A stretch of DNA of 64,000 nucleotides from the NCBI GenBank assembly GCA_964498285.1, contig CAZCGN010000001.1, positions 175,916 through 239,915 of the forward strand, given 5' to 3'. The first letter of the stretch is position 1. Every line of letters begins with the position of its first letter. The stretch is from an uncultured Methanosarcinales archaeon. GTDB lineage: Archaea > Nanobdellota > Nanobdellia > Woesearchaeales > GW2011-AR9. The position numbers and the translations under genes were made by a program. Under the pieces are notes generated by a model. That model searched no databases, was not told where the DNA came from, and saw only the letters and a program-made list of their open reading frames with translations. Shown piece after piece: positions 45,507 through 64,000 of this stretch.

Positions 45507-45946
45507 CTTTTCAATTCCATAGTTTTATCTTCGAGAACGGTTACTTTGGCATTTCCATCAACAACAACTTCACCATTACAAATGATTTCTGTTTCCATAA
45601 TAATAACTCTTACACTATCAATCTTATCTTTAACTTTTCCCCGTATTAAAAGGGTAGAATTCGGATAGACTGGTTTTTTGAAATTTAGCTGTTGTGTTAA
45701 ACAAAGACATTTCTCACCTGGGCAAAGCATTCCAAAAAGAGTTGAAAAGTAGCTTGAAAGATGCAATCCGTGTGCAATAATTCCGTTAAACTGGGTCTTT
45801 TTGGCAAATGCTTCATCACAATGAAGGGGTTGCTTATTTCCCGTCAAAGAAATAAAATCATCAATACTCTCTTTTGTAAGAAGCTGAGTAAACTCAAACA
45901 CAGAACCAATTTTAATTTCCTCATAACTAAAACAGTTTGCATCCAT
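45503..45946 (-). CDS. MaoC-like hot-dog fold dehydratase
   Basis: 147 aa. Hot-dog core with GKVKDKIDSVRVIIMETEIICNGEVVVDG pattern. Confidence 0.55.
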   Translation of the reverse strand: MDANCFSYEEIKIGSVFEFTQLLTKESIDDFISLTGNKQPLHCDEAFAKKTQFNGIIAHGLHLSSYFSTLFGMLCPGEKCLCLTQQLNFKKPVYPNSTLLIRGKVKDKIDSVRVIIMETEIICNGEVVVDGNAKVTVLEDKTMELKS

Positions 45947-45949
45947 CTT

Positions 45950-46438
45950 TTATGTATTTTCACCTAAAGCCCCATGTTTTTTGAGAGCTTCTTTGATTTG
46001 GCCATATGTTCTAAGTTGCATAACTTCCTGTGTTGTAAACCTAACATTGAATGCTTTTTCTAAATCAGAAAAGAGCATCATACCTGCAAATGAATCATTT
46101 GATGTGAGCAAATCGCTGTTCAGACCTGCTTTAAGATCCTTTGTATCGATATTAAGATTTTTTTGAAGTATCTCCTGAAGTTTCTCTTCAGGAGTTTCCT
46201 TTTTCAACACTATCTGCTTACTTTGAAGAATTGTAATAATTTGTTCAACGTTGTTGAGTCGTAATATCTCTTCTTCTCTAAACGTAATGAGAAAAGATTT
46301 TTCAAGTTCAGCAATGATCTTAAAGTGGGCAAGAGAATCCCATCCTTCAACATTAAGCATTGAAGAATCAAGAGTGATTTTTGCTTGATCCAGACCTAAT
46401 GCTTGAGCCACAACTTCTTTAACTTTCTCATCAATCAT
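45950..46438 (-). CDS. Tandem (didomain) acyl carrier protein
   Basis: First domain has canonical LNVEGWDSLAHFKIIAELEKSF (DSL phosphopantetheine site). Second domain has TSNDSFAGMMLFSDLEKAF. Confidence 0.55.
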   Translation of the reverse strand: MIDEKVKEVVAQALGLDQAKITLDSSMLNVEGWDSLAHFKIIAELEKSFLITFREEEILRLNNVEQIITILQSKQIVLKKETPEEKLQEILQKNLNIDTKDLKAGLNSDLLTSNDSFAGMMLFSDLEKAFNVRFTTQEVMQLRTYGQIKEALKKHGALGENT

Positions 46439-46468
46439 TTTTTGCTCCCTCTAGCCAAATGGAGTTAT

Positions 46469-49276: not shown

Positions 49277-49303
49277 ATTTTTATATGCATTAGTCCTTCT
49301 TGT

Positions 49304-50611: not shown

Positions 50612-50649
50612 TCTAGTATACCTCTTGTCGTGATTATTTTGTGATCATT

Positions 50650-51402
50650 TTATACGACCATCCCCCCGTCAATAACGAGAACCTGGCCTGTAACATAGCT
50701 TGACATTGCAGTTGCTAAGAACAGTGCACCTTTTGCAATCTCTTCTGGTTTTGCAATTCTTCGTAGTGAAGTTCTACTAACAAGTTTTTCCACGCGAGCC
50801 TTATCTAACGCATCTAGCATGTCTGTTTGAGTCAATCCTGGTGCTAGAGCATTTACTCGTATGCCCACCTCTCCCAACTCTTTTGCCGCAGCTTTTGTAA
50901 GCCCTATTACTCCTGCTTTACTTGAACAATACGGGGTTTGGCCCGCGTTTCCATAAATCCCAACCGAAGAAGTAACATTTATGATCCTGCCTCCATTTGG
51001 ATTGCTCATCATAAGTTTAGTTGCTTCATGCAAACAGTTATATGTTCCTTTTAAGTTAACATTCAAAATAGCATCCCAATCCTGCTCCTCTGTTTTTACA
51101 ATAAGATTATCTTTTAAGATTCCCGCATTATTAACAAGAACATCTATTTTGCCAAATTTTTCTTTGATCGTACGAAACATTTCAGCAACTTCATAAGAAT
51201 TACTTACATCTGCCTTAACCAAAAGCACTGTTGCTCCAATTTGTATGATCTCTTCTGCGGTTCTTTGTGCCTCAATATGATTCTTCAAATAATTTACTAT
51301 AACCATAGCTCCTTGCTTTGCAAACTCTAAAGCTATCGCTCGTCCAATTCCCCGACTTGCCCCAGTTACTAGGGCCACTTCCCCACGCATAAGGTCGATC
51401 AT
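50650..51402 (-). CDS. fabG: SDR-family 3-oxoacyl-(ACP) reductase (FabG-like)
   Basis: TGASRGIGRAIA, NNAG, and the YCSSKAG catalytic tetrad region. Confidence 0.8.
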   Translation of the reverse strand: MIDLMRGEVALVTGASRGIGRAIALEFAKQGAMVIVNYLKNHIEAQRTAEEIIQIGATVLLVKADVSNSYEVAEMFRTIKEKFGKIDVLVNNAGILKDNLIVKTEEQDWDAILNVNLKGTYNCLHEATKLMMSNPNGGRIINVTSSVGIYGNAGQTPYCSSKAGVIGLTKAAAKELGEVGIRVNALAPGLTQTDMLDALDKARVEKLVSRTSLRRIAKPEEIAKGALFLATAMSSYVTGQVLVIDGGMVV

Positions 51403-51491
51403 TTATAAACCTCTTCTGGTTGCATCAGGAGTATAAATAGATTATGGTCTTAGGGAACAGCAATCATCATGGGGGAAATCTACGAGGAGAA

Positions 51492-52415
51492 TTAGGGAGA
51501 CTTATGCTTGAGAATGCATGCATAATTTATTGGGGTTTTTTTATCTTCGGGTTTCTTTGCTGAAAATACATTTAAAACAAGTTCTTTTTCAATATCAAAA
51601 AATTCTTCAAGCATGTCCCGTACCTCTTGAGCTGATTTGAAAAGATAAATATGGTCTATTGCAGCAGCCCAAACTGCAGTTGTAAGGAAAAGTGTACCGC
51701 CCTTTTTAAGAAGCCCTTTGAGCTTTTTGAGAAGTGCTTTTGGATCTTCGAGATGTTCAAGTAATTCTCCACAAACTACCTTATCATATTGGCCTTCACT
51801 AGGAATATCAAAAATATTCTCTTTATGAATCATAGCCTTAATTCCATTATACTCTAAGACCTTTTTGCTAAACGTAACAGAGCTTGCACTAATATCATAT
51901 CCTTCAGCAACCCATTGTGGATTAGATCTCATAAACTCCGAAATAAACACTCCTGAGCCCACTGGAACCTCAATTATCTTGCCATTAGGAGAAAAAGGAG
52001 CTGAAAATTCCTTTAGAAAAAAAAGGAGCATCTTGTGATGGTTTATCCATAATGCCTGTGAAAGAAGAAGACCATTAAGATACCTTGTTTCCATAACTAA
52101 AGGATTATCATATACCTTTTCTTGGGCTTGTGAATAAGAGGAAAAAAGATATTTCCCCGTTTTTTCAAGTTCAATTTGCAATCGCAAAAACTCCATAGAA
52201 TATTCAATAAAATCTTTGATTGCTTTCGTGTACCTCTCCAAACTTTGGTTACAAAGAGCAAACATAGTTTGACACATCTTCTCGCCAAGCTCTCTGTCAT
52301 ATTTTGGATCAAGCAGTTTATCAGGAATACTCCTTGTTACAGGAGACTGCTTGAGTTGATCAAGAGTGTATGCAAATAGATCATCTGGTTTTGTATCGCC
52401 CATTGTTTCATTCAA
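51492..52415 (-). CDS. Class I SAM-dependent methyltransferase
   Basis: Motif I IIEVPVGSGVF and post-I acidic residue. 307 aa. Confidence 0.6.
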   Translation of the reverse strand: MNETMGDTKPDDLFAYTLDQLKQSPVTRSIPDKLLDPKYDRELGEKMCQTMFALCNQSLERYTKAIKDFIEYSMEFLRLQIELEKTGKYLFSSYSQAQEKVYDNPLVMETRYLNGLLLSQALWINHHKMLLFFLKEFSAPFSPNGKIIEVPVGSGVFISEFMRSNPQWVAEGYDISASSVTFSKKVLEYNGIKAMIHKENIFDIPSEGQYDKVVCGELLEHLEDPKALLKKLKGLLKKGGTLFLTTAVWAAAIDHIYLFKSAQEVRDMLEEFFDIEKELVLNVFSAKKPEDKKTPINYACILKHKSP

Positions 52416-53520
52416 TTAGATATTCTTCTTTTATTAATTCTCCCAACAAAGCTGCATAAACTTGATTCCCGTCAGCATTAAAATGACCATCAAAATTCCA
52501 ATGCATTTGAGTCGCTCGAGGGTGCTCTATTAAATCTTGAGTTGGATCAAAAAAATCAAGTCCTAAACGTTGTGTAATAATCGTATAGATTTCCTGAGCT
52601 ATCCTTGGGTTAAGATTTGCTTCATCCAAGTTATAACTCTCACTGATCACATCCAATCGTTCAGGATTTATTTGGTATGGTGGTGGAAGAAAAAGTACCA
52701 GAAGAGGGATATCTTGAGCTTGGGCTGATTTTTTCATCTCTGCAAGATTTTGGTATGTGCTATGGATACTATCTTGTATTGCAGGTGTGTTTCTTCCCTG
52801 CAGGAGAGCAAGATCAAAAGCATTAGAATTCCTCCCATGCCTATTAATTCCTAAGGTAGTAATTAATGTATGGCCAAGTGGCGTTGTTTTTGCTTTCCAA
52901 TAGAGGTGATTTATAAACTTGGAGTTCTCGTATACCCAAAGAGTAAAGGATTTTCTTTGTTGGGTACTACTTCTTTTATCAAATAGATTTGTTGCATACA
53001 AATTGCCGAGTCCTACTTCTACAACAATTAAATCAGGATTATATTTTGGTGCATACTCCTGGAGAATATAATTCATTTCACCAAGTCCACTACCCCCAAG
53101 GCCCAAATTTATAACTTCAACTCCTCCCATGGAAGATTCAAGAATACTAGGATATGTTTGTTCAAGATCAACCGTGTTGCCAAATACTGAAGATGACCCA
53201 ATTATTGCAATTCTATAAACTCCCTCTTCCTTTTGCAGGCTATGAAAGTCACGAAAACCTAAATGGTTTGTATTAATTGTGTATGAAAATTCTGAGGTGG
53301 ATTTTGTAAAGTTCGTCAAATTCACATAAACATTCTTCTTCAGTTCAGGAACAAATTGAGCATTTTCTTTTGGCCAAAGTCCTGGTGCCACTTCATCACT
53401 TTTAAATACGCGTACTCCTGCTTCCCCTGCTGCTAGACAAAGTAAGAGGACAACAAACAAAACAAGAAAGTTTATTCCTAAGTTGCGTAACTTTTTTTGA
53501 GTGTTCTTTGAAGGAGACAT
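52408..53520 (-). CDS. Membrane-anchored SGNH-hydrolase-like protein (AlgX/AlgJ/DltD-like O-acyltransferase candidate)
   Basis: N-terminal TM helix, then IAIIGSSSVFGN and GLGGSGLGE blocks consistent with an SGNH fold. Confidence 0.4.
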   Translation of the reverse strand: MSPSKNTQKKLRNLGINFLVLFVVLLLCLAAGEAGVRVFKSDEVAPGLWPKENAQFVPELKKNVYVNLTNFTKSTSEFSYTINTNHLGFRDFHSLQKEEGVYRIAIIGSSSVFGNTVDLEQTYPSILESSMGGVEVINLGLGGSGLGEMNYILQEYAPKYNPDLIVVEVGLGNLYATNLFDKRSSTQQRKSFTLWVYENSKFINHLYWKAKTTPLGHTLITTLGINRHGRNSNAFDLALLQGRNTPAIQDSIHSTYQNLAEMKKSAQAQDIPLLVLFLPPPYQINPERLDVISESYNLDEANLNPRIAQEIYTIITQRLGLDFFDPTQDLIEHPRATQMHWNFDGHFNADGNQVYAALLGELIKEEYLIE

Positions 53521-53649
53521 TTGCTTGAAATTTTCGAAGTATGTAGATATATAAAGATTTAGGAACGGTGAATTTGTTAACTTCCCAGGTAGCTATTTAC
53601 TACTCCCAAAAGCTAAATATTTTTAAACACTCAACTTGCTTAAAACCTC

Positions 53650-54630
53650 ATGGGGGAGAAAAAGTTCTATCTTCTAGTACCAATCATAGCATTAGTTATA
53701 AGCACCATCATATATGTCTCCTTTGCAAGTTCTTTTAATAGTCTTGGGCCAGAAAGTTCCAGGTTTCAGACCATACTACACGAATATGATACACTTCCTG
53801 CCGAAAGCCTCTTATTTTTGGGAGATAGTCAAATCCAAGATGGAATTGATTGTAATTTAATAGACCAAATAGTTGAAGAAAAATGTTTCAACTTTGGATT
53901 AGCAGGCTTGGTACCGGTCCAATTAGCTCTTCAAAAAGAGTTGATTATCTCAAGTAGTCCAAAGACAGTTGTTATTGGAACTTCCGCTGCATTCTATGAT
54001 GAATCTATGAATAAAAATGATGATCTATTTATGGTTATGAGCCAGTTCAAAAAAATCTCATATGATGCATTTCTTCTAACAAAGGTTACCGAACAAGAAA
54101 AAAAACTCTTAACAATGAACATCTTTCAAAGGTCTCTTTATAAGCGAAAATTCATTCTCCCTTTCTATACATCACTCTTTAAGCAAGTGTTCTTCTCGCA
54201 AGAAGTATACCCAAACATAATCAACAATTTTAAAAATCCACATTTCTTTATTCACCAACAACCTATTGAGACATTAATCTCGAAACTTGAAGATCCAAAC
54301 ATCACACAAATTTTTGAAATTGAAAAATCTCAGAAACGAGAACGAGAAGCGTTTCATTATCTCATTGCAGAGATGAAAAAAGAAGGAATCCACGTTGTCG
54401 TGATCCATATGCCAACGCACCCTTTAGTTTGGCAAACTGTTCCCTCTTCATCGCAGGAAACATTTCAGCAATATCTTGAAGAGCTCTCAGATGTCCTCAA
54501 CTTTACGTTAATAAACACTCAAGAAGATTTTCTCCCAGAACATTTTACAGATCTAACTCACCTTAACAGGGCTGGTTCAGAACATTTATCCAAAAAAATT
54601 GTAGAAGGTGAGTATAATATTATTCAATAG
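53650..54630 (+). CDS. DltD-like membrane-anchored SGNH-fold protein
   Basis: N-terminal TM anchor and LFLGDSQIQDGID (GDS block). Size and topology as DltD/AlgJ. Overlaps the MBOAT start by 23 nt. Confidence 0.5.
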   Translation: MGEKKFYLLVPIIALVISTIIYVSFASSFNSLGPESSRFQTILHEYDTLPAESLLFLGDSQIQDGIDCNLIDQIVEEKCFNFGLAGLVPVQLALQKELIISSSPKTVVIGTSAAFYDESMNKNDDLFMVMSQFKKISYDAFLLTKVTEQEKKLLTMNIFQRSLYKRKFILPFYTSLFKQVFFSQEVYPNIINNFKNPHFFIHQQPIETLISKLEDPNITQIFEIEKSQKREREAFHYLIAEMKKEGIHVVVIHMPTHPLVWQTVPSSSQETFQQYLEELSDVLNFTLINTQEDFLPEHFTDLTHLNRAGSEHLSKKIVEGEYNIIQ

Positions 54631-56068
54631 TCTTGCTTTTCTCTATTTTGGACTTGTTATTCTCCTCTTTTTACTCATTGTTCAACATAAAAAATGGCAG
54701 TATCTTTTCTTACTTGCTGCAAGCTATTTTTTTTATGCATATTCTAGCGGATACTTGTTTCTGTTGTTACTCTTCTCATCAGTCTTAGATTTTTACTGTG
54801 GGAGATCTATTTCTAACTCGACAAAAAAAAGAACACGTAACCTGTTTCTTACGTTAAGTTTAGTGGGGAATATTGGTGTTCTTGCATTTTTCAAGTATAC
54901 TGATTTTGCTATAACAACAGTAAATAGTGTTGCGGGATTTTTTGGATATTCAACTTCAATTCCTCTCTTGCATCTTGTTCTACCAATTGGAATTTCCTTT
55001 TTCACATTTCAAACAATGAGTTATACTCTTGATATTTATATGAACAAACTTAAACCAACTTCTTCCTTCCTCAATTTTGCCCTCTACGTTTCCTTTTTCC
55101 CTCAACTCGTTGCAGGACCAATTGTACGAGCAGCAGATTTCCTTCCACAGCTTAGTAAGAAAATTGTTGTAACAAAGGAAAATTTCATGCAGGGACTTAC
55201 CCTCGTTATGTGGGGCCTTGTTAAAAAAATCGTTATTGCAGATAATATTGCACTTTTCGTAAATTCTTTTTATGCTGATCCTACAGCGATCCCTGGAAGT
55301 CTTCCCATTATCCTTGCTGCAATCGCTTTTACAATCCAAGTATATTGTGATTTTTCAGGATACTCCGATATTGCAATCGGACTTGCACGCATAATGGGCT
55401 TTCATTTTAATTTAAACTTTGATAAACCGTTCTTCTCACAATCTATTGCTGAATTTTGGAAAAGATGGCACATCTCCCTTTCAACATGGTTTAGGGACTA
55501 TCTTTTTACTCCGATTATGGGAAAACGTTTCACACTCAAAAAACTGTATGCAAGTGTATTTTTCGTCTATTTAGTGAGTGGCCTTTGGCATGGAGCTGGA
55601 TGGAATTTTGTTGCATGGGGCGCTCTTCATGGCACATTTCTGGTTATTTCTATGGTAAGTAGTCAGTGGAGAAACAAGTTCAACAAAAAGATTGGACTCC
55701 TTAAAGTTCCCAAATTTCACAGAGTATTGCGTACTGCCTGGACTTTATATTTAGTTGTTTTCTCTCTTCTGCTCTTTAGATTGTATGATGCTCGTTTTAT
55801 TTGGTATGCTGCAAAGAAATTCCTCATTCTTGATTTTAGTGAATTTACATCGCAGGTCATACAAGTTGCATCAGCATATGAAACTTCACTATTAATTATG
55901 GGCATCTTTGTTATTATTCATACAATCACGTACTTCAAAAAAGATACAATTTCACACATTGCACAAAAGGGATATTTTGAGTGGACAATGTATCTTATAG
56001 GAATGATCTTACTTTTGTACTTCCTTGCTCCAAGCGAGTCCATACAGTTTATCTATTTCCAATTCTAA
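54608..56068 (+). CDS. MBOAT-family membrane-bound O-acyltransferase (DltB/AlgI-like)
   Basis: Polytopic, with conserved FWKRWHISLSTWFRDYLFTPI block (catalytic His) and upstream QTMSYTLDIY region typical of DltB/AlgI. Confidence 0.8.
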   Translation: MSIILFNSLAFLYFGLVILLFLLIVQHKKWQYLFLLAASYFFYAYSSGYLFLLLLFSSVLDFYCGRSISNSTKKRTRNLFLTLSLVGNIGVLAFFKYTDFAITTVNSVAGFFGYSTSIPLLHLVLPIGISFFTFQTMSYTLDIYMNKLKPTSSFLNFALYVSFFPQLVAGPIVRAADFLPQLSKKIVVTKENFMQGLTLVMWGLVKKIVIADNIALFVNSFYADPTAIPGSLPIILAAIAFTIQVYCDFSGYSDIAIGLARIMGFHFNLNFDKPFFSQSIAEFWKRWHISLSTWFRDYLFTPIMGKRFTLKKLYASVFFVYLVSGLWHGAGWNFVAWGALHGTFLVISMVSSQWRNKFNKKIGLLKVPKFHRVLRTAWTLYLVVFSLLLFRLYDARFIWYAAKKFLILDFSEFTSQVIQVASAYETSLLIMGIFVIIHTITYFKKDTISHIAQKGYFEWTMYLIGMILLLYFLAPSESIQFIYFQF

Positions 56069-56118
56069 GATTCGATCTTTAACAATCTTTTTAAGGTGTC
56101 CATCTCAAGGAATTTTCT

Positions 56119-56865
56119 ATGAGTTCAAAGACCAGAAAAGATCTCTCAAATCTTACCAACAAGCAACTTCGTGCGAAGGGACGTAAAAAATGTTGGAGTG
56201 TATCACAAAAATTCTGGCTTGAAGTGTCCCTTTTCATTGCAGCGCCTCTTGCACGCACCCGTATTACACCTAACATTATCTCAATTTCGTGGATTTTCGT
56301 GCAACTAATCGCCGCGGCATTATTTATATTCGGCAGTTATTCGCTCAACCTTATTGCTATTATTCTCTTCAACTTTGTTGCCTACATTGGAGACCACCTT
56401 GATGGCAACGTTGCACGCATGAAAGAACAGTATAGTAACCTTGGCCCATACTTAGAACAACTTGCAATCTTTTTTGGAACACCCCTTATATTCCTTGGCC
56501 TTGCATTTGGGAACTTCTCACAGAATGCAAATGCAACATTTTTAGTGCTAAGTCTTCTGGGTGTACTCTTTTGGTTGTTTGAAAAGCTTATTCGAATTAA
56601 CCCGGTTTGGTTTAATGAGGAAAAACAAAAAGAGTTAGTATCAATTTATCGAAAAAAAGTCTCGTTTCGAACACAAAAGGGTTGGAAAAAATATTTCATT
56701 GAGTTTACCAGAAGAGGACAACCATTTAATTTACTCTTCTTTTTAGTGCTCTTTAATTTTGCGCAAGCGGCAGCTCTTATTTACTCCGGACTCTTTGCTG
56801 CAGAATTCGTGCGAAAGCTGACTGCAACTGTACTTAACCTCAAGAAATCAGACGCACATGGCTAA
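56119..56865 (+). CDS. CDP-alcohol phosphatidyltransferase family protein
   Basis: YIGDHLDGNVARMK contains D-G-x2-A-R of the CDP-OH_P_transf signature. Multiple TM helices. Confidence 0.6.
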   Translation: MSSKTRKDLSNLTNKQLRAKGRKKCWSVSQKFWLEVSLFIAAPLARTRITPNIISISWIFVQLIAAALFIFGSYSLNLIAIILFNFVAYIGDHLDGNVARMKEQYSNLGPYLEQLAIFFGTPLIFLGLAFGNFSQNANATFLVLSLLGVLFWLFEKLIRINPVWFNEEKQKELVSIYRKKVSFRTQKGWKKYFIEFTRRGQPFNLLFFLVLFNFAQAAALIYSGLFAAEFVRKLTATVLNLKKSDAHG

Positions 56866-58321
56866 AAAGAAAATAACCGTAAGCAAGGAATCAGCAAGCG
56901 CAGGTGTTGTATACCTCATCTTTTCACAACTCTCGCTTATTCTCTCAAACTATGGAATTCATATTGGTCTTGCCCACTTTGTGGGTGAAGCAACCTATGG
57001 TCTCTTTGGTGTTCTGATGTCTCTTTATCTTATCAACAGAGCACTTTTGAATACTGGACTTCCACGAGCAGTCTCGAAATTTGTAGCTGAGGGGAGATAC
57101 AGGTTTGAAGAAGTATTCTACACTTCACGAAAACTCCAGTATGCTCTAAGTTTCCTTTTTGCAGGAGCATACATTCTCTTTGCAAAACAAATTGCTTCCT
57201 TACTAAAAGATCCCACACTTACACCATACATAGTATACCTTGGATTTATAGTAATACCTCTCTCATTACTCGCGCTCTATAGCAGTGGATTTCTCAATGG
57301 TCTTAGACTATTCCGTAAGCAAGCAATTGTAAAGATTATATATCCCTTACTTCGCGTTTTGTTCACGCTTATATTTGTTCTGCTGGGGTTTAATTTGTAT
57401 GGTGTGCTTACTGGATATCTTTGTGGGATAGTCGGAGGCCTTTTTCTTGCCAAATTGTTCCTTCCACTCAGAAAAGTTGAAAAACCAAAAAAAAACGTGT
57501 TTACATCCTCAAAAGTGCTCAGCTTTTCTCTCTATATATCAGCAGCCTCACTTATTCTAACACTTCTTCGAAATGTGAATGTACTTTTTATCAAATCTAT
57601 GCTTGAAGATAATATTGCAACCGCCCTTTTTACAGCAGCTTCCACTATCGCAAATGTGCCACTAGTGGTATTTGGAGCTCTTCCCTTCGTGCTTCTCCCA
57701 TCCATTTCCAAAAGTATTGCAAAAAAAAACGTTGCAGCAACCAAAAAGTATATTCAAGAATCCCTTCGTTATCTCTTACTTTTATTACTTCCAATTGTTG
57801 TGCTCATTACAGCTACAGCACCTGAAATCCTTACTCTTCTCTACCCTTCAACTTATATTGCTGCTGCTTCTACTTTGAGTATTTTAGCTATCGCATCAAT
57901 TTTTTTAGCATTTTTAACAACTCTTTCATCAATCCTTGTTGGTGCAGGTAAAGCAAAAGAGCAGCTAATGTTTGTTGGTGTTGGCTTAATCATATTGGTA
58001 GGGGCAAACTTCTTTCTTGTTCCACTCTATGGAATTATTGGTGCTGCCCTCTCCTTACTTATCTCATCTTTTATTGCTGTAAGTCTTGCATATCTGTATA
58101 TTTACAAAAAATTTGGAGCAACTATATCGCTTCTTTCTACTGTGCGGATCTTTACCGCATGTGCAGGCATATTCTTCATCGTGTGGAATTGGCATAACTC
58201 AGGCTTCCAGTTAATTTTAGAATATGCTCTTTTAGGAGGCCTATACTTTCTTCTCCTCTTTTTTCTCAAAGAGATTGGAATTACAGAGTGGAAGCTGGTT
58301 AAAAAAGTTGTCAAAAGATGA
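56858..58321 (+). CDS. MOP-superfamily polysaccharide/oligosaccharide flippase (Wzx/MATE-like)
   Basis: 487 aa with about 14 TM helices, polysaccharide-biosynthesis-protein-like topology. Overlaps the previous gene. Confidence 0.65.
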   Translation: MAKKKITVSKESASAGVVYLIFSQLSLILSNYGIHIGLAHFVGEATYGLFGVLMSLYLINRALLNTGLPRAVSKFVAEGRYRFEEVFYTSRKLQYALSFLFAGAYILFAKQIASLLKDPTLTPYIVYLGFIVIPLSLLALYSSGFLNGLRLFRKQAIVKIIYPLLRVLFTLIFVLLGFNLYGVLTGYLCGIVGGLFLAKLFLPLRKVEKPKKNVFTSSKVLSFSLYISAASLILTLLRNVNVLFIKSMLEDNIATALFTAASTIANVPLVVFGALPFVLLPSISKSIAKKNVAATKKYIQESLRYLLLLLLPIVVLITATAPEILTLLYPSTYIAAASTLSILAIASIFLAFLTTLSSILVGAGKAKEQLMFVGVGLIILVGANFFLVPLYGIIGAALSLLISSFIAVSLAYLYIYKKFGATISLLSTVRIFTACAGIFFIVWNWHNSGFQLILEYALLGGLYFLLLFFLKEIGITEWKLVKKVVKR

Positions 58322-58368
58322 AAATTTTTGCATAACTCTTTTAAACCACTTTTAAGGAACAAAAAAAC

Positions 58369-59295
58369 GTGGCACGTGCAAGCAACATTGATTTTCTTAT
58401 CCCATTTGTCGTAGATCCAGCAATTTTAGACTGGGATGAAGCTAGATCATCTGGAACAGATCTTACAAGACGAGTGATTGATCTTTTTGGGCAAATTCAA
58501 GATGATCCTTCTGCTATTGGACCAAAGACACTTCGAAAAAAAGTTAGAGATCTTGTATTCCATGATGAATCACAAATAGGACGCAAGCTTCAACGTTTAA
58601 CTCATTTCTTTCATGTTGGTTCCATTAACAGACAACTCACAACAGCTCTTAGTGCACTGCACCCGGAACTTGATCTTCCAACACCACAAGCAGCGTATAC
58701 TTCTGGAGTTGTGCATGATATCAGTACTGTTTATTGTAGACGAGGTGGGAAATTCCTGGGTTTTGAAAAAGAACTTCCTCTTCTTCACCATGCAAGACAT
58801 TTGGGAGTTCCTGATCTTGCAGATGCAGCTGTACACAATGCATATCCTGATGTTTTGAATATGATCAGAGATAGAGAAGGCTTTGCACAAGCAGAGATGT
58901 ATGCTGCATGGCAAGAAGCATTGCAGGAAGAAGGTGGTTTGCATAATTATGACAGAATCATGCTCGAATATGCTGATCTTCTAGAAGGAAAGGGGAAGGC
59001 AGGTTTGATTACGCTTACTCTTGCAGATTGTCTTGATGTTACATCGGGTGGTAAAACCATAATTGATCTTGATGATCTTCAAACACCATTTGAAATCAGA
59101 CTAGGAGACATTCAAAGAAGAAACTATGATGCAAAAATAGAAGCAGGAGATACACCCACTCCTCATGGAATTGCCCTTGCAGAAAGAGGTGGACGAGAGA
59201 GAATTGAAGGGTACCTTGCTATGGTTGATGATTTATTACATGGGCGAAACCTTGAGCTCTATAACAAAGATGTGCACCCTGGTTTGTGGAAGTAG
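58369..59295 (+). CDS. Hypothetical protein, possibly HD-domain-like; GC-richer than surroundings
   Basis: His/Asp clusters (THFFHVG, VVHDIS, LLHHARHLG) hint at an HD-type metal site. Confidence 0.25.
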   Translation: MARASNIDFLIPFVVDPAILDWDEARSSGTDLTRRVIDLFGQIQDDPSAIGPKTLRKKVRDLVFHDESQIGRKLQRLTHFFHVGSINRQLTTALSALHPELDLPTPQAAYTSGVVHDISTVYCRRGGKFLGFEKELPLLHHARHLGVPDLADAAVHNAYPDVLNMIRDREGFAQAEMYAAWQEALQEEGGLHNYDRIMLEYADLLEGKGKAGLITLTLADCLDVTSGGKTIIDLDDLQTPFEIRLGDIQRRNYDAKIEAGDTPTPHGIALAERGGRERIEGYLAMVDDLLHGRNLELYNKDVHPGLWK

Positions 59296-59384
59296 TTTTT
59301 TCTTCTCTAAATTCCATATCTGAAAATAGGTCAAGATCATAATTTCTGAAAGTTTATAAACGGGAAAACTGGCGCAAATGGTTA

Positions 59385-60749
59385 ATGGATGAACAAAAAA
59401 TGTTTGGCACAGCGCCGAATCACACAAACCAAGAGGTACCTAAGATGAAAACTGTATACGTTCCAATGGCAGCAGACTTGCTGCATGATGGTCACATGAA
59501 TATTCTTAACATTGCAGAAAAACTAGGCGAAGTTACTGTTGGCCTTTTAACTGACAGTGCAATTGCTAACTACAAACGCCTTCCAGTATTAAGCTTTGAA
59601 CAACGTAAAAAAGTAATTCGGAACATTAAAGGTGTGAGTAGAGTATATGCACAAGAAGACGATGATTATATTCAAGCAATCAAGGAATTAAAACCAGACT
59701 ATTTTGTACATGGAGATGATTGGAAAACAGGTGTGCAGGCAAACAAGCGAAAACGAGTACTTGAAACTATGCAAGAATGGGGCGGACAAGTTATAGAACC
59801 GTCATATACACGTGGCATTTCCACAACACAAATGGTCTCAAAAGTTAAAAATCGTGGGATCACACCACACATGAGGCGAAACATGCTTCGTAGACTTTTG
59901 GATGCAAAAAGAATTGTTCGAATTCTTGAAGCTCATAATGGTTTAACTGGCCTTATTGTTGAAAAAACAGCAGTCCAAGTTGAGGATTCAACGAGGACAT
60001 TTGATGGGATGTGGCTTAGTAGCTTAACCCACTCAACCTCAAAGGGAAAACCAGATATTGAATATGTCGATATTACTGCAACAGGACACACGTTAAGCGA
60101 GATTTTTAGTGTAACAACAAAACCAATGATTGTTGATGCCGACACTGGCGGCTTGGTAGAACATTTCAGGTTTACTGTACGGGCCCTTGAAAGTTTAGGA
60201 GTTTCAGCTGCAATCATTGAAGATAAAGTTGGACCTAAACGTAACTCTCTTTTTGGAACAGATGTGAAACAGACACAGGATACTATTGAGAACTTTTCTC
60301 GTAAAATCTCTGAGGGGAAAAAAGCGCAACTCTCCAATGATTTTATGATCATTGCACGCATTGAAAGTCTTATTCTCAAGCAAGGTCTTGAGGATGCTCT
60401 TAGACGAGCAAAAGCATATATTGAGGCTGGTGCAGATGCTATTATGATTCATAGTAAAGTAGAATCACCAAATGAAATCTTAGAGTTCTGTGAAGAATTT
60501 AAACAGTTTGAAACAAAAGTTCCGCTCATTGCCGTCCCAAGTTCATACTCAACTATTACTGAAAAAGAGCTTATTAAAGCTGGTGTGAACATTGTAATCT
60601 ATGCAAACCATCTTCTGCGCAGTGCGTATCCTGCCATGGTTAAAACTGCTGAATCCATCTTACAGAACGAAAGATGCCACGAGGCAAGTGGTGCCCACTG
60701 TATGCCAATTAAACAAATTCTTACTTTGATTCCTAATGGTGAAGATTAA
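59385..60749 (+). CDS. Bifunctional cytidylyltransferase / phosphoenolpyruvate phosphomutase (Fom1-like architecture)
   Basis: N-terminal MAADLLHDGHMNIL (HxGH cytidylyltransferase motif). C-terminal PEP mutase/ICL superfamily domain with AAIIEDKVGPKRNSLFG (EDK..K.NS motif) and GADAIMIHS. Confidence 0.75.
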   Translation: MDEQKMFGTAPNHTNQEVPKMKTVYVPMAADLLHDGHMNILNIAEKLGEVTVGLLTDSAIANYKRLPVLSFEQRKKVIRNIKGVSRVYAQEDDDYIQAIKELKPDYFVHGDDWKTGVQANKRKRVLETMQEWGGQVIEPSYTRGISTTQMVSKVKNRGITPHMRRNMLRRLLDAKRIVRILEAHNGLTGLIVEKTAVQVEDSTRTFDGMWLSSLTHSTSKGKPDIEYVDITATGHTLSEIFSVTTKPMIVDADTGGLVEHFRFTVRALESLGVSAAIIEDKVGPKRNSLFGTDVKQTQDTIENFSRKISEGKKAQLSNDFMIIARIESLILKQGLEDALRRAKAYIEAGADAIMIHSKVESPNEILEFCEEFKQFETKVPLIAVPSSYSTITEKELIKAGVNIVIYANHLLRSAYPAMVKTAESILQNERCHEASGAHCMPIKQILTLIPNGED

Positions 60750-60859
60750 AGCTATAACAATGGAAGCATACACAAAGTTTAAGTCATTGAAAGGAAACAT
60801 ACAAAAAAGGAGATCGGATTTGATACAGTCCAAGATTATGAAAATAGTATCGAGGTGGA

Positions 60860-61816
60860 ATGATGAAAAATAAAATTGTTGTAGTACTAATACTTCTTTT
60901 ACTTTTTGTTGCCGGATGTGCAAAAGAGACACCTAATGCAAGCGGAATAGACCAAACTCTAATTCAGGTCGGAAAAGATACAGATACTTCTGGATTTGGA
61001 GAAATTAAAAAAATTAAGATGGGGCTGATCCCTGCAGACGATGCTGCTGAAATGCTACAAAATTATGAACCAATAAAGGAATATTTATCTGAAAGTTTAG
61101 GAATTGAAGTTGAAATTCAAGTCACATCAGACTACACTGCAGCAATAGAGGCCATGAGAGCAAAACACATAGATATGGCCTGGTTTGGACCTTTTTCGTA
61201 TATTATTGCTGCAAACATTGCAGATGCTCAAGCAATAGTAAATGGAGTAAAGGCAAGCACAGATAGTGCAACATATAAATCAATTATTGTAACTAACAAA
61301 GACAGTGGAATAGAAACTATCGAAGATTTAAAAGATAAAAGTTTTGCTTTTGTAGACCCTGCCTCAACATCAGGGAATTTAATCCCAAGAAAAATGCTAA
61401 TTGAAAACAATATTGATCCAGAGGAGGACTTTAGTAACAGTTATTATGCAGGAAATCATAATGCAGTGATGTACGCTGTTGCAAATGGGAAAGTAGATGC
61501 AGGTGCAACAGGTGACAATGTATATGATAGAATGATTGAAGCAGGAGAGATAGATCCTGAAGCAAATATTGTTATCTATGAATCAGAGCCAATACCTGGT
61601 TCACCCATTGTAGTTAGAAAAGACCTCCCAGCAAACTTAAAACAAGCTATCCAAGATGCACTGGTGAACATGGATCAACAAACGATTCATAAAGTTGATG
61701 GATGGGGCGGAATAATAAGATATCAAGTTGTAAGGGATAGTGATTATGACGTTATTCGCGATACAGCCAGAATATTGGGGATGGAAGTTGACAGTGCTGA
61801 GGCAGCTTCCACATAA
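60860..61816 (+). CDS. phnD: Phosphonate/phosphite ABC transporter substrate-binding protein (PhnD-like lipoprotein)
   Basis: Lipobox LLLFVAGCAKE. PhnD-like blocks KMGLIPADDAAEM...HIDMAWFGPFSYIIA. Confidence 0.65.
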   Translation: MMKNKIVVVLILLLLFVAGCAKETPNASGIDQTLIQVGKDTDTSGFGEIKKIKMGLIPADDAAEMLQNYEPIKEYLSESLGIEVEIQVTSDYTAAIEAMRAKHIDMAWFGPFSYIIAANIADAQAIVNGVKASTDSATYKSIIVTNKDSGIETIEDLKDKSFAFVDPASTSGNLIPRKMLIENNIDPEEDFSNSYYAGNHNAVMYAVANGKVDAGATGDNVYDRMIEAGEIDPEANIVIYESEPIPGSPIVVRKDLPANLKQAIQDALVNMDQQTIHKVDGWGGIIRYQVVRDSDYDVIRDTARILGMEVDSAEAAST

Positions 61817-61874
61817 ACATTTTTAAAATTTTTATTTTTTATATGTAAAATACGTAGATAAAAGAGAAAACAAA

Positions 61875-62648
61875 ATGTTAAAAATTAAAGAATTATCACA
61901 CAGCTATGCAAATCAAAATGAAAAATCTCTTAATAACATAAATATAACTGTAGATCCTGGAGAGAGTGTTGTGATAATTGGTTCAAGTGGTTCTGGCAAA
62001 TCTACTCTTCTGAAATGTATTAATAGATTAGTAGAACCTTCTGAAGGAAATATCATTATTAATGAAGAAGATATATTAAACTCAAAACATAAAGATGTAG
62101 AACGAATAAGGGGCAAAGTTGCCATGATTTTTCAAAATTTTGGGCTTATTGAAAGATCGACAGTTCTTACAAATGTGCTAAATGGTAGGCTCAGACATAA
62201 TGGTGCAGTTAGTACGATATTTGGTAAATTTTCAAATAAAGACTATGAAATTGCACACAAAAATATTGAATTAGTAGGATTGAATAAATTCATCCACAAA
62301 CGAGTTGCAGATTTGAGTGGGGGTCAAAAACAAAGAGTTGCTATTGCCAGAGCTTTATGTCAAGAGCCCGAGATTATACTTGCTGATGAACCTGTTTCAA
62401 GCCTAGATCCTAAATTGATGAAAGAAATAATGGATCTTTTAACAGAGATTTGCAAATCAAAAAACTTAACATTAATTACTTCTTTACATTTCTTGGATTT
62501 TGCAAAAAAATATGCTACGAGAATAATTGGAATAAAAGAAGGGTCTATTATATTTGATGGGGAGCCAGAGAACTTAACTGAAAAAGATATTGTTGATATT
62601 TATGGTAAAACAAAAGATTGTTTTGATCTTGGGAAAATAGGTTTCTAA
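61875..62648 (+). CDS. phnC: Phosphonate ABC transporter ATP-binding protein (PhnC-like)
   Basis: Walker A GSSGSGKST, signature LSGGQKQRVAIARAL, Walker B ILADEP. Confidence 0.75.
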   Translation: MLKIKELSHSYANQNEKSLNNINITVDPGESVVIIGSSGSGKSTLLKCINRLVEPSEGNIIINEEDILNSKHKDVERIRGKVAMIFQNFGLIERSTVLTNVLNGRLRHNGAVSTIFGKFSNKDYEIAHKNIELVGLNKFIHKRVADLSGGQKQRVAIARALCQEPEIILADEPVSSLDPKLMKEIMDLLTEICKSKNLTLITSLHFLDFAKKYATRIIGIKEGSIIFDGEPENLTEKDIVDIYGKTKDCFDLGKIGF

Positions 62649-62650
62649 TC

Positions 62651-63451
62651 ATGAAAAGAAAACTTAGAATAGAACCCAAGAAAAACCATAAGAGGTTGAT
62701 AATTGGATTAATTATTGTATTAGTATATTTTTGGGCTATTAAGGGCACAGATACCAGTTTAGTTAATTTTTCAAAAGGTGTTCCATCCATGATTGACTTT
62801 ATTGTACGAATGTTTCCACCAGATTTTAGTAATATTCAGTTATATTTATACAAGACAGTTGAAACATTACAAATGGCAATTGTTGGTTCTACAATTGGAG
62901 CAATTATTGCTTTACCACTGTCATTCCTTGCGGCAAGAAATATTAATTCAAACAAGATAATATACCACAGTATTAGAAGCATTTTCGATACCTGTAGGGG
63001 GATAAATGAGATTGTTTGGGGATTAATATTTGTATCAATGGTTGGCCTCGGACCTTTCCCGGGCGTCCTTGCACTGGCAGCACACGTAACTGGAGCTCTT
63101 GGAAGATATTTCTCAGAAGCAATTGAAACGGTAGATACAGAGATTATTAGAGCTATTATGTCAACCGGCGCAAATAAAATACAAATGATTGTCAGAGGGA
63201 TTATACCTCAAGTAAAACCCTTATTCTTAAATTATTTATTATATTATTTAGAGAATAATTTTCGTGCTGCAACAGTTTTGGGTTTAGTTGGAGCAGGAGG
63301 CATAGGTATGGAATTGCTTACCTCCATGAGATTATTTAGGAGTAAAGAAGTGTTAACAATACTCATAATTATGGTGACAACAGTTATTGCCATAGATCGG
63401 CTAAGTGCGTATATACGGAAAAAACTCATCAAAGTTGAATCTATAGAATAA
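62651..63451 (+). CDS. phnE: Phosphonate ABC transporter permease (PhnE-like)
   Basis: 6-TM permease with an EAA-like loop. Start overlaps the phnC stop. Confidence 0.65.
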   Translation: MKRKLRIEPKKNHKRLIIGLIIVLVYFWAIKGTDTSLVNFSKGVPSMIDFIVRMFPPDFSNIQLYLYKTVETLQMAIVGSTIGAIIALPLSFLAARNINSNKIIYHSIRSIFDTCRGINEIVWGLIFVSMVGLGPFPGVLALAAHVTGALGRYFSEAIETVDTEIIRAIMSTGANKIQMIVRGIIPQVKPLFLNYLLYYLENNFRAATVLGLVGAGGIGMELLTSMRLFRSKEVLTILIIMVTTVIAIDRLSAYIRKKLIKVESIE

Positions 63452-63544: not shown

Positions 63545-64000
63545 CTATCCTTCAAAAGGAAACGCTTCAGCAGTAATGCGAGGATCTGTTGTTTTTGCAA
63601 CTAATCTTTCATGAATTGAACGTGTTAGCCCAGGTAGTAGAACTCCTTGCCGTTCAGCAAGAACTGTCCATGCAGGACAGAGTGGATCTTCTCTTCTTCG
63701 ACTATAATTATGTGGATCATCATTTGCAACAATAAGACCTGTTTCAACATCAACTGCTGAATATGCTGAGCGAACAGCACAACCGCCGCGACAGAGATCT
63801 TCTGCATTAAGATCACAAACATTTGGCGCGCATACATAGGTTCCAATTCCTTCGGCAAAACGTCCCCTATATGCTGCAAGCTCAGGACTCCGCGCAAGTT
63901 TTGCGAGTGAAAAATCAGGATCATTCACGTTTCCAAAGGTGTATGCAGTGGTCTCTTCTCTTCCCGGTGACTCTGAGCATGCGGTAATATCTCCATTTGC
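63545..64000 (-). CDS. Cys-rich hypothetical protein, N-terminus probably beyond window end
   Basis: The listed ORF ends at 63928 but the frame appears to remain open to nt 64000. Cys-rich YVCAPNVCDLNAEDLCRGGCAV. Confidence 0.25.
   Translation of the reverse strand, partial: ANGDITACSESPGREETTAYTFGNVNDPDFSLAKLARSPELAAYRGRFAEGIGTYVCAPNVCDLNAEDLCRGGCAVRSAYSAVDVETGLIVANDDPHNYSRRREDPLCPAWTVLAERQGVLLPGLTRSIHERLVAKTTDPRITAEAFPFEG

Follow-up and report, generated by a model that had tools for sequence, protein, structure and literature searches.

The methylphosphonate biosynthetic cluster of Nitrosopumilus maritimus was reportedly described by Metcalf in 2012. It is composed of ppm, ppd, pdh, and mpnS; among archaea, MPnS is listed for the Thaumarchaeota and Crenarchaeota only, and the neighborhoods of its genes suggest phosphonate esters (PMC9381506). 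Fom1 from Streptomyces wedmorensis, according to the account of Cho et al. 2017 given in PMC6697681, is a bifunctional cytidylyltransferase/PEP mutase. In the Pnt logic, that of the Lic phosphocholine pathway, the phosphonate is activated with CTP by a nucleotidyltransferase that is either fused to Ppm or found beside it, and is subsequently transferred to a surface acceptor (Rice et al. 2019, PMC6697681). Fusions of the PF01467-Ppm type account for 23.6% of the RefSeq Ppm enzymes (Rice 2019, PMC6697681), and more than 8000 matches to the architecture were found in this analysis, such that it is not rare. A first-pass annotation of the DNA considered here had called the transfer and export of CMP-activated phosphonate head groups rare in archaea.

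That DNA, referred to as the window, is 64,000 nucleotides in length. Its host is archaeal, as annotated initially, on the basis of a thermosome match of 717 bits (cut-off 450), a family-B DNA polymerase, a presenilin-type SPP, and HerA, and is probably a Woesearchaeales-like member of the DPANN with a small genome. We consider there to be a reasonable case that the region forms the core of a locus for envelope tailoring with phosphonates, of the 2-hydroxyethylphosphonate (HEP)/methylphosphonate type. Gene sets for making phosphonates and activating them with CMP for envelope decoration are already a well-known type, and the locus is an incomplete variant thereof. Its oddities are an MPnS gene just past the window edge, the missing Ppd and Fe-alcohol dehydrogenase (Fe-ADH), and a PhnDCE importer in their place. 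The features are as follows, with window-equivalent positions for the two genes outside the window.

53650-54630, plus strand: DltD-like protein, single-pass
54608-56068, plus strand: DltB-like MBOAT (PF03062, 92.5 bits)
56119-56865, plus strand: CDP-alcohol phosphotransferase-family integral-membrane protein, 248 residues, variant signature (PF01066, 35.1 bits, cut-off 22)
56858-58321, plus strand: Wzx/MOP-family flippase, 487 residues (Polysacc_synt, 65 bits; also Polysacc_synt_3, MatE, MurJ)
58369-59295, plus strand: orphan HD-superfamily protein, 308 residues, soluble
59385-60749, plus strand: bifunctional Fom1-type cytidylyltransferase (CyTase, residues ~22-155) and PEP phosphomutase (Ppm, residues ~164-451), 454 residues
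60860-61816, plus strand: PhnD-family extracytoplasmic lipoprotein solute-binding protein, 318 residues (TIGR03431, 278 bits, cut-off 261.1)
61875-62648, plus strand: PhnC ABC ATPase (TIGR02315, 314.6 bits, cut-off 266.1)
62651-63451, plus strand: PhnE ABC permease (TIGR01097, 294.6 bits, cut-off 216.7)
63545-64000, minus strand: 3' part of a radical-SAM/SPASM gene (518 residues) that runs past the window end
65106-65528 (L001 15707-16129, from its gene table), outside the window: HxlR regulator
65593-66954 (L001 16194-17555), outside the window: methylphosphonate synthase (MPnS)

The seven ORFs from 56119 to 63451 are all real, were typed correctly, and lie on the plus strand at these coordinates; the public gene call for the fusion begins at 59400 rather than at 59385 as in the ORF list. 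The gaps between successive plus-strand genes from 53650 to 63451 are -23, 50, -8, 47, 89, 110, 58, and 2 bp. Four models, namely PEP_mutase, PhnD, PhnC, and PhnE, pass their NCBIfam equivalog cut-offs. The DltD-like and MBOAT genes, which lie upstream on the same strand, are possibly co-transcribed. They fall outside the conserved phosphonate gene set, since none of the relatives examined has a homologue of either close to the fusion, and the MBOAT reaches 165 bits against the DltB model TIGR04091, under its cut-off of 375.

The fusion of an HxGH cytidylyltransferase to a PEP phosphomutase was recognized correctly at the outset. Pfam places PF01467 at residues 31-150 and PF13714 at residues 168-426 (E 2.7e-55). 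The HxGH motif reads HDGH (residues 34-37), and both the Ppm motif EDKVGPKRNS and the previously quoted peptide IIEDKVGPKRNSLFG are present. Judged by its score of 394.8 bits against TIGR02320 (cut-off 319.55), the C-terminal domain is a genuine Ppm, not an isocitrate or methylisocitrate lyase. The latter had been raised as a possible identity and was rejected, its score being just 111.8 bits as against the 394.8 bits for PEP_mutase. The closest PDB match to the N-terminal domain is the Fom1 CyTase (5X3D, E 5e-47, 54% identity), and the Ppm domain matches 5UNC (E 2.5e-45). Across 135 columns that are at least 97% conserved in 119 homologues, the protein departs at two, E79R and R270S. Arg 270 is not catalytic, because the solved Ppm and PPH have an alanine there. 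Purifying selection therefore appears to act on both domains.

The likeness to Fom1, proposed earlier, is thus borne out by the same two-domain order, the N-terminal identity, and the HxGH and EDKxxxxxNS motifs. The fusion gene here, however, lies among surface-glycan and membrane genes and MPnS rather than fosfomycin genes, and a B12 radical-SAM Fom3, FomD, and Fom4 are all lacking. A fosfomycin-like scheme, with transient cytidylylation, modification of the CMP-phosphonate by the radical-SAM enzyme, and hydrolysis by the HD protein as a FomD analogue, which would yield a free phosphonate metabolite instead of a surface conjugate, is given very little credence. The closeness of the CyTase domains would suit it, as would the radical-SAM gene that adjoins MPnS both here and in the related locus L003 (68% identity between the two proteins), and an HD-type phosphohydrolase could conceivably cleave a CMP-phosphonate. 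A domain search of the radical-SAM protein, though, revealed Radical_SAM and a weak SPASM domain but no B12-binding domain, and for these reasons it is not Fom3-like. Furthermore, its gene is absent from most relatives, in which the CDP-alcohol transferase, cytidylate kinase, and glycan genes recur instead, no Fom4/HppE-type epoxidase is present, and the cupin protein is MPnS.

The gene for this cupin protein lies 1.6 kb past the window end. Its product matches MPnS in PDB entry 6B9S with 558 bits (E 1e-166), as compared to 292 bits for HEPD, is 56% identical to the N. maritimus enzyme, and retains all equivalents of His 148, Gln 152, Phe 162, Ile 184, and His 190, which constitute the 2-His-1-Gln and Phe/Ile signature. 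Family and signature identify it as MPnS, and the corresponding activity would be expected. No report of an MPnS from DPANN was found in the literature searched. The enzyme requires O2, which, depending on the habitat, may count against the main reading. The locus resembles the N. maritimus cluster in its Ppm and MPnS and in the polysaccharide/ester-forming genes nearby. It differs in that neither ppd nor pdh occurs in 71 kb, the host is DPANN-like rather than a thaumarchaeon, and the tailoring set consists of a CDP-alcohol-type transferase and an HD-family protein, with a cytidylate kinase in relatives.

In related DPANN MAGs the operon comprises CyTase-Ppm, MPnS, the HD-fold protein, Ppd, Fe-ADH, cytidylate kinase, and the CDP-alcohol-type transferase, and all four N. 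maritimus core genes are contiguous. The first five occur in that order in L008, L009, L011/L013, and L015, followed by the transferase, and in every case glycan genes (GT2, PMT_2, epimerases) surround them; the kinase adjoins the transferase in L013 and L015. The L010 sequence breaks off after Ppd. L003 contains the same gene set plus the radical-SAM gene, and its Ppd scores 500.8 bits with TIGR03297 (cut-off 312.5). L005 is a split cluster with the HD, fusion, and Fe-ADH genes and no Ppd within 10 kb. Because the relatives share this CyTase-Ppm/MPnS/Ppd/Fe-ADH operon, the chemistry is the canonical route from PEP through phosphonopyruvate (PnPy), phosphonoacetaldehyde (PnAA), and HEP to methylphosphonate (MPn), with CMP activation and no new chemistry.

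Canonical Ppd and Fe-ADH genes adjoin the fusion in most relatives examined. Here, when three Ppd and three Fe-ADH sequences of the relatives served as tblastn queries against the 64-kb window and the 7 kb downstream, no match was better than E 0.8, in keeping with the initial remark that no Ppd was visible, and the cytidylate kinase (Cmk) is also absent from these 71 kb. The gene order is scrambled with respect to six relatives. None of the best 120 Ppd homologues (at least 61% identity to that of L003) lies on the 780,040-bp contig bearing the locus, and therefore most of the genome probably lacks a Ppd acquired by vertical descent. Our tentative preference is that genes for Ppd and Fe-ADH lie elsewhere in the genome and that their products supply HEP, with PhnDCE serving in phosphorus scavenging or recapture.

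Besides completion elsewhere in the genome, the first-pass annotation had offered a non-canonical route via the genes at 46469-50611. Phosphonopyruvate would be converted to phosphonolactate by a D-2-hydroxyacid dehydrogenase domain or to phosphonoalanine by a class I/II aminotransferase, followed by adenylation and carrier-protein loading, after which the DltB-like MBOAT would esterify the product to a polymer at the surface. Such a route would explain the missing Ppd, its genes are adjacent, with the MBOAT and DltD-like genes on the same strand at short gaps, and VlpB-type reductases and PalB-type transaminases, recognized enzymes of the PnPy branch point, offer precedent (PMC8942020). We nevertheless regard it as improbable. 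None of its genes is near the fusion in any of nine related loci. The dehydrogenase domain scores as a glyoxylate reductase/PGDH, under cut-offs, the adenylating domain resembles those of fatty-acyl-CoA ligases, and the best match to the aminotransferase is GntC-like (150 bits, cut-off 415). In addition, MPnS uses HEP as its substrate, and therefore the decarboxylase route is needed.

The downstream PhnD, PhnC, and PhnE were also annotated correctly. As in E. coli PhnCDE, the subunits pass the Phn equivalog models and have the architecture of an importer: PhnE displays hydrophobic segments, and the PhnD signal peptide carries the lipobox VAGC. By family, then, PhnDCE is a binding-protein-dependent importer. 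The solved structures nearest to PhnD are PtxB (166 bits), HtxB (109 bits), and E. coli PhnD (98 bits). The phosphonate-oxygen ligands (Tyr, Tyr, Ser-Thr-Ser, and His) are conserved. PtxB and HtxB are binders of phosphite and hypophosphite (Bisson et al. 2017, PMC5700983). Although PhnD is nearer to PtxB overall, Ser 248 occupies the position of the strictly conserved phosphite-capping tyrosine (Tyr 208 in Te_PtxB), which argues against a binder of phosphate or phosphite only. Likewise, the residues that bind the AEP amine in E. coli, Asp 205 and Glu 177, are replaced by Ser 248 and Asn 220. Given these replacements, the predicted ligand is neither phosphite nor AEP, and the pocket, as read from three aligned positions, suggests import of a small neutral organophosphonate.

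It is possible, if doubtful, that import substitutes for both missing steps. Ppd, Fe-ADH, and Cmk would have been lost and PhnDCE gained, with PhnD capturing HEP (or MPn) from a host or neighbor for processing by MPnS and the CyTase, and Ppm either idle or running from PnPy to PEP, the direction it favors. The transporter genes sit between the fusion and the radical-SAM/MPnS genes, whereas L003 has no such insert and PhnDCE is absent from every relative's locus examined. The serine in place of the PtxB tyrosine and the asparagine and serine in place of the acidic pair would fit a neutral or hydroxylated alkylphosphonate, and a close Ppd orthologue is absent from the contig among the best 120 homologues. 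Reduced genomes and dependence on a host, typical of DPANN, also speak for salvage. On the other hand, the Ppm domain is intact, with its score and motif kept and neither of the two changes among the 135 conserved columns catalytic; free HEP is not, to our knowledge, an abundant environmental compound, and MPnS would be superfluous if MPn were imported.

Pfam matches support the initial placement of a CDP-alcohol transferase-family protein and a Wzx-like flippase upstream on the same strand. The former, with approximately five hydrophobic segments, is a putative CMP-phosphonate:acceptor phosphonyltransferase. Like its closest solved relative, AF2299 (E 5e-9), and the CDP-alcohol phosphotransferases of the archaetidylinositol-phosphate-synthase type, it is a multi-pass PF01066 protein with the DxxDGxxAR-x8-G half-signature. 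Its motif, however, reads DhlDGnvAR-x8-G-x3-E-x3-I, such that the third aspartate is a glutamate and the fourth, the catalytic base, an isoleucine; in the relatives' transferases a histidine is found there. The protein may thus be inactive or work differently. Every NCBIfam equivalog score is far under cut-off (45.8 versus 180), its counterparts in L008, L009, and L011 are 29% identical to it, and the donor would presumably be a CMP-phosphonate rather than a CDP-alcohol. The flippase has many hydrophobic segments, and L005 and L007 also encode similar flippases close to the fusion.

The link between transferase and fusion recurs in L003, L008, L009, L011/L013, L015, and L018, and the pairing of the transferase with cytidylate kinase in L013 and L015 is consistent with transfer of a phosphonyl head group and release of CMP. 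The earlier proposal of head-group transfer gains from this recurrence, but PhnDCE, being an importer, is no part of an export route. CTP activation by a Ppm-fused nucleotidyltransferase ahead of transfer to a cell-surface acceptor resembles the Pnt/Lic logic. Yet the characterized PntC is LicC-like (PF12804) and prefers AEP, whereas the activating domain here is PF01467, and the transferase, instead of being LicD-like, belongs with the CDP-alcohol phosphotransferases.

The altered transferase, the loss of three of the seven conserved operon genes, and the scrambled gene order would be in accord with a decaying or rewired remnant that no longer makes a phosphonate conjugate, PhnDCE being the cell's phosphorus uptake system and there by chance. 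Since DPANN and Patescibacteria are excepted from the spread of pstS and pnas across all major phyla (Boden et al., PMC11066067), a Phn-type transporter could be a general phosphorus importer. We view decay as unlikely, however: the retained genes are full-length and uninterrupted, and every signature residue is kept in the fusion and MPnS, as are all family-invariant residues in the HD protein.

The ORF encoding that HD protein went unmentioned in the first-pass annotation. It is probably a metal-dependent phosphohydrolase, and its uncharacterized family was found in this analysis only beside Ppm or Ppd.

In the favored scheme, the C-terminal domain of the 454-residue protein, by family membership, would convert PEP to phosphonopyruvate. 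Ppd and Fe-ADH, as in the relatives, would then yield phosphonoacetaldehyde and HEP, and MPnS would produce methylphosphonate. The Fom1-type domain would combine CTP with HEP or MPn to form a CMP-phosphonate, from which the CDP-alcohol-family membrane protein would transfer the phosphonyl group to an acceptor in the membrane, either a lipid or a lipid-linked glycan, releasing CMP, and the Wzx-type flippase would move the product to the outer face. The HD protein would be a conserved accessory enzyme, most likely, if speculatively, a phosphohydrolase acting on the CMP-phosphonate or a phosphorylated product. What is new here is the HD-superfamily family of ORF 58369-59295 and, as far as the literature searched shows, an MPnS in DPANN.

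Seven open reading frames, all oriented in the same direction, lie within positions 56119-63451 of the window. Searches against Pfam and NCBIfam agree with the gene types that the first-pass annotation had assigned to this interval. That annotation had passed over the reading frame at 58369-59295, for which neither database returned a family match and which is referred to here as the HD protein. The same locus read past the end of the window (L001) contains a gene for methylphosphonate synthase (MPnS).

Features of the phosphonate locus
56119-56865, + strand, CDP-alcohol phosphatidyltransferase-family protein (CDP-OH_P_transf; Pfam/NCBIfam)
56858-58321, + strand, Wzx/MOP flippase (Pfam/NCBIfam)
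58369-59295, + strand, HD protein (no match in Pfam or NCBIfam)
59385-60749, + strand, CTP_transf_like and PEP_mutase fusion, CyTase-Ppm (Pfam/NCBIfam)
60860-63451, + strand, PhnD, PhnC and PhnE (Pfam/NCBIfam)
65593-66954 (window-equivalent; L001 16194-17555), + strand, MPnS, 1.6 kb past base 64000

The genes are arranged in the order CDP-alcohol transferase, Wzx, HD protein, CyTase-Ppm, PhnD, PhnC, PhnE, a radical-SAM gene on the opposite strand, HxlR, and MPnS. Identical proteins are encoded on a 780,040-bp NCBI contig and in two independent Logan assemblies, SRR8146440 and SRR8146441.

The host is archaeal, given that genes for a thermosome (717 bits against a cut-off of 450), a family-B DNA polymerase, RNase HII, HerA, and a presenilin-type signal-peptide peptidase are found in the window. 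The closest homologues of the fusion protein, with amino acid sequence identities of 73-78%, belong to metagenome-assembled genomes (MAGs) of Woesearchaeota and Nanoarchaeota, and we infer that the host is probably a DPANN archaeon. An ECF-type sigma-70 factor (Sigma70_r2 and r4) at 41144-41704 on the minus strand is odd for an archaeon on an otherwise archaeal contig and may be a bacterial acquisition. Three successive genes at 38274-41137 (+ strand) resemble a split ATP-citrate lyase or citryl-CoA synthetase/lyase and encode, respectively, ATP-grasp_2 plus Citrate_bind, CoA_binding plus Ligase_CoA, and a citrate synthase C-terminal domain. Tandem duplications are found on the minus strand at 7181-8481 and 9228-11185, namely HIT-family genes (177 and 255 residues) and two RNase HII genes (275 and 226 residues), the latter separated by a reading frame of 130 residues.

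The C-terminal domain of the fusion protein scores 394.8 bits with the TIGR02320 PEP-mutase equivalog (cut-off 319.55), as compared to 111.8 with methylisocitrate lyase (PrpB) and 58.1 with carboxy-PEP mutase. It carries the Ppm-specific EDKxxxxxNS motif as EDKVGPKRNS, residues 279-288. The N-terminal domain (PF01467, 58.1 bits) displays the HxGH motif as HDGH, residues 34-37, and its best solved match is the Fom1 cytidylyltransferase (5X3D; E 4.8e-47, 54% identity over 134 residues). Given the equivalog score and the presence of both motifs, the possibility that the first-pass annotation had raised against its own proposal, a C-terminal domain of the lyase type, falls away. Judged by these features, the C-terminal domain qualifies as a genuine PEP mutase and the N-terminal domain a PF01467 cytidylyltransferase akin to that of Fom1, with cytidylylation of 2-hydroxyethylphosphonate (HEP) as its putative reaction. 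The fusion enzyme itself is ordinary: there are at least 8000 homologous proteins, and both domains occur in all of the 120 matches listed. Indeed, PF01467 is fused to 23.6% of RefSeq Ppm enzymes, and ∼60% are fused to some nucleotidyltransferase (Rice et al., PMC6697681).

Both domains of the fusion look functional, since only two of 135 columns that are at least 97% conserved among 119 homologues differ in the window protein and neither is catalytic. Residue 79, in the cytidylyltransferase domain, is Arg rather than the Glu found in 116 of the 119 homologues and in Fom1. Residue 270, in the Ppm domain, is Ser rather than the Arg found in all 119. Inactivation of Ppm by this second replacement was considered and dropped, since Ala occupies that position in the solved, more distant Ppm and PPH.

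Loci were retrieved around homologues of both the fusion and the HD protein. One same-direction gene set is common to L008, L009, L011/L013, and L015. It consists of CyTase-Ppm, a 455-residue "HTH" protein, an HD-family protein of ∼300 residues, phosphonopyruvate decarboxylase (Ppd), an iron-dependent alcohol dehydrogenase (Fe-ADH), and a cytidylate kinase (documented in L013 and L015), with a CDP-alcohol transferase downstream. GT2, PMT_2, and sugar-modifying genes surround it. Locus L010 holds the first four genes before its contig ends, and L003 has the same set with an inserted radical-SAM gene and a Ppd that passes TIGR03297 (500.8 bits, cut-off 312.5). A distant variant at L018 3622-12187 contains an HD-family protein, Ppd, CyTase-Ppm, and a CDP-alcohol transferase without MPnS, accompanied by two TauD-type dioxygenases, an NTP transferase, HxlR, an inositol monophosphatase-family gene, and methyltransferases; the head group made by this cluster is probably another phosphonate, a hydroxylated one.

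The 455-residue "HTH" protein of the relatives is methylphosphonate synthase. Pfam assigns the copy at the present locus nothing more than faint HTH_31/HTH_3 matches, and yet it aligns over its full length with the Nitrosopumilus maritimus MPnS (6B9S; E 1e-166, 558 bits, 56% identity) as against 292 bits and 38% identity with HEPD (6B9R). The iron ligands of MPnS are reportedly H148, Q152, and H190, and the pair Phe 162/Ile 184 is said, after Born et al. 2017, to distinguish MPnS from HEPD. Equivalents of all five residues are retained in this copy and in six of six DPANN copies, whereas the solved HEPD has Tyr/Gly at the Phe 162/Ile 184 pair; the signature is read from that reported meaning of the pair and from the contrast between the two solved sequences. 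The MPnS gene is conserved next to the fusion in the Nanoarchaeota/Woesearchaeota contigs L003, L008-L011, and L015. Because the shared operon includes MPnS, the conserved chemistry is predicted to be the canonical route from PEP through phosphonopyruvate (PnPy), phosphonoacetaldehyde (PnAA), and HEP to methylphosphonate (MPn), together with CMP activation, a CMP-releasing transfer, and CMP recycling.

Between PhnE and MPnS lies a radical-SAM/SPASM-like gene of 518 residues, which covers 63545-64000 of the window on the minus strand, runs on to L001 15702, and is 68% identical to the L003 radical-SAM gene located between MPnS and Ppd. A Fom3-like identity was ruled out, for the protein has a Radical_SAM core and a weak SPASM region without a B12-binding domain. 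In this respect the locus differs from the fosfomycin-type pathway, there being no B12-dependent radical-SAM methyltransferase. Directly downstream of MPnS, at L001 17582-21350 (window-equivalent ∼66981-70749), is a set of nonulosonic (sialic-like) acid genes, namely UDP-GlcNAc 2-epimerase, a CMP-sugar synthetase (CTP_transf_3), NeuB, and UDP-glucose dehydrogenase, which supports the view of the region as a surface-glycan island.

Three members of the relatives' operon are missing here: no match for Ppd, Fe-ADH, or cytidylate kinase in the window plus 7 kb downstream is better than E 0.4. With tblastn, nothing better than E 0.8 was found for Ppd in the window and L001, in keeping with the first-pass observation that no decarboxylase was visible, and nothing better than E 2.4 for a PhpC-type Fe-ADH (phosphonoacetaldehyde reductase). 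None of the best 120 homologues of the L003 Ppd, a list that ends at ∼61% identity, maps to the 780,040-bp contig. A vertically inherited Ppd would be in that list, as its expected identity is ∼75-85%. The list omits the Ppd of L007 itself, and what it rules out is a close orthologue; the genome may yet hold a more divergent Ppd or carry the gene on a different contig. Locus L005 (8948-14067) contains an HD-family protein, CyTase-Ppm, Fe-ADH, and Wzx with no Ppd within 10 kb, and the best 120 Ppd matches include no close Ppd from its 412,874-bp contig. It is a second Ppd-less arrangement and shows that split clusters occur. HEP may well be supplied by a Ppd and an Fe-ADH encoded elsewhere in the genome, an explanation to which we assign slightly less than even weight. 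That the locus is simply a remnant seems improbable.

The first-pass annotation had also suggested that PnPy might be used directly by the neighboring aminotransferase or dehydrogenase. These belong to a Dlt-like acyl-carrier module, on an archaeal contig, at 44542-56068. It encodes a PPTase, an E2/CAT-like acyltransferase, a MaoC dehydratase, a tandem ACP, a 935-residue D-2-hydroxyacid-dehydrogenase/PCP/adenylating protein, a class I/II aminotransferase, an SDR, a methyltransferase, an SGNH protein, a DltD-like single-pass protein, and a DltB-like MBOAT, the last two on the strand of the phosphonate genes and separated by tiny gaps. Its composition suggests a role in attaching a (hydroxy)acyl group to a surface polymer through an ester bond. 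A scan of metagenomes for the 935-residue protein yielded just one 1.2-kb contig without context. Direct use of PnPy by these genes is very unlikely, since the presence of MPnS favors the decarboxylase route and no gene of the module lies near the fusion in any relative.

Another possible source of HEP is import. PhnD, PhnC, and PhnE pass their equivalogs (278 against 261.1, 314.6 against 266.1, and 294.6 against 216.7 bits, respectively), and the transporter is an importer because PhnD bears a lipoprotein-type signal peptide (…FVAGC). By sequence, PhnD is closest to the PtxB phosphite binders (166 bits), followed by HtxB (109) and Escherichia coli PhnD (98). In the phosphite binders the capping tyrosine, Y208 in Te_PtxB, is strictly conserved and makes a P-H...pi contact (PMC5700983). 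Ser 248 occupies that position here, in a local motif, IPGSPIV, that resembles IPGDPIV of the E. coli protein. In the latter, D205 and E177 reportedly bind the amine of 2-AEP (Alicea 2011); they align with Ser 248 and Asn 220 of the present PhnD, in which the ligands of the phosphonate oxygens are kept. On the basis of these three aligned positions, the ligand is likely a small uncharged organophosphonate such as MPn or HEP. No PhnDCE transporter is found at the phosphonate locus of the relatives. Replacement of Ppd and Fe-ADH by import is a tentative alternative, and a rather doubtful one.

The HD protein, 308 residues long, belongs to a family with just 33 cluster representatives in 1.84 billion proteins. 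H79, H116-D117, H156, and D220 are invariant, and R244, R278, and Y282 nearly so. The AF2 model built from the alignment is confident (pLDDT 94.7), and a profile search pairs the H…HD motif with that of SAMHD1. With an H...HD...D metal-ligand motif and an HD fold, the protein falls within the HD-domain metal-dependent phosphohydrolase superfamily; it has no hydrophobic segment. Its five conserved ligands appear more consistent with a phosphohydrolase-type site than with the diiron oxygenase site of PhnZ, which has six. Members of the family down to 29% identity still adjoin Ppd or CyTase-Ppm. Since L018 has an HD-family protein with TauD-type oxygenases in place of MPnS, the family is tied to CyTase-Ppm/Ppd clusters and not to MPnS specifically. 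A role as a replacement for Ppd, prompted by L005, in which the HD gene is next to the fusion and Ppd is absent, was dropped, as the protein co-occurs with Ppd in L008-L012, L017, and L018. Candidate substrates are a phosphorylated transfer product or, if the protein acts like FomD, a cytidylyl-phosphonate.

The CDP-alcohol transferase, 248 residues in length, is polytopic with approximately five hydrophobic segments and scores 35.1 bits with PF01066 (cut-off 22); its best solved match is AF2299 (E 5e-9). The full CDP-alcohol signature, D-x2-D-G-x2-A-R-x8-G-x3-D-x3-D, is altered here to DHLDGNVAR-MKEQYSNL-G-PYL-E-QLA-I (DxxDGxxAR-x8-G-x3-E-x3-I), the third aspartate being replaced by Glu and the fourth, the proposed catalytic base, by Ile. 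The relatives' transferases have Asp or Glu at the third position and His at the fourth. The Ile, together with an identity of 29% to the relatives' enzymes, makes the activity of the transferase uncertain.

A mechanism for the locus can be outlined. The cytidylyltransferase domain would produce CMP-HEP or CMP-MPn, the membrane transferase would attach the phosphonyl group to a lipid or lipid-linked glycan, and the Wzx flippase would move the product outward. This scheme we consider reasonably probable. A more elaborate reading, speculative when taken as a whole, is that a reduced DPANN genome exchanged two committed steps, Ppd and the PnAA reductase, for an importer whose lipoprotein PhnD is adapted to a neutral alkyl- or hydroxyalkyl-phosphonate. 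HEP or MPn would be scavenged from the host or the environment, processed by the cell's own MPnS, activated with CMP, and transferred by an atypical enzyme lacking the fourth Asp, while a previously unrecognised HD-fold family specific to CyTase-Ppm clusters would act on the cytidylyl-phosphonate or a phosphorylated intermediate.

Characterised relatives are known for each of the core enzymes (Fom1, Ppm, MPnS, PhnCDE), and the locus follows the Pnt pathway in its logic. The differences from known systems are the occurrence of MPnS in DPANN-like archaea, the tailoring set of CDP-alcohol-type transferase, cytidylate kinase, and HD-family protein, and the lack of ppd and pdh in this genome, where an importer takes their place. 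Among archaea, MPnS is given just for Thaumarchaeota/Crenarchaeota, and MPn, the precursor of aerobic methane via C-P lyase, has few known producers, namely Nitrosopumilus-type archaea, SAR11, and a few other bacteria (PMC9381506). A search of the accessible literature found no link between DPANN archaea and MPnS or MPn synthesis. Several Nanoarchaeota/Woesearchaeota MAGs hold complete CyTase-Ppm/MPnS/Ppd/Fe-ADH operons with the MPnS signature, and the operon found here is partial. Concrete targets are the HD-fold orphan family, seen here just in phosphonate clusters, a CDP-alcohol-type transferase that likely uses CMP-phosphonates, and a PhnD variant with a pocket that hints at a new class of ligand. 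Ultrasmall DPANN archaea would join the candidate producers of MPn, non-marine habitats included, and the findings point to phosphonate-modified envelopes as a feature of the DPANN surface, the interface with their hosts.
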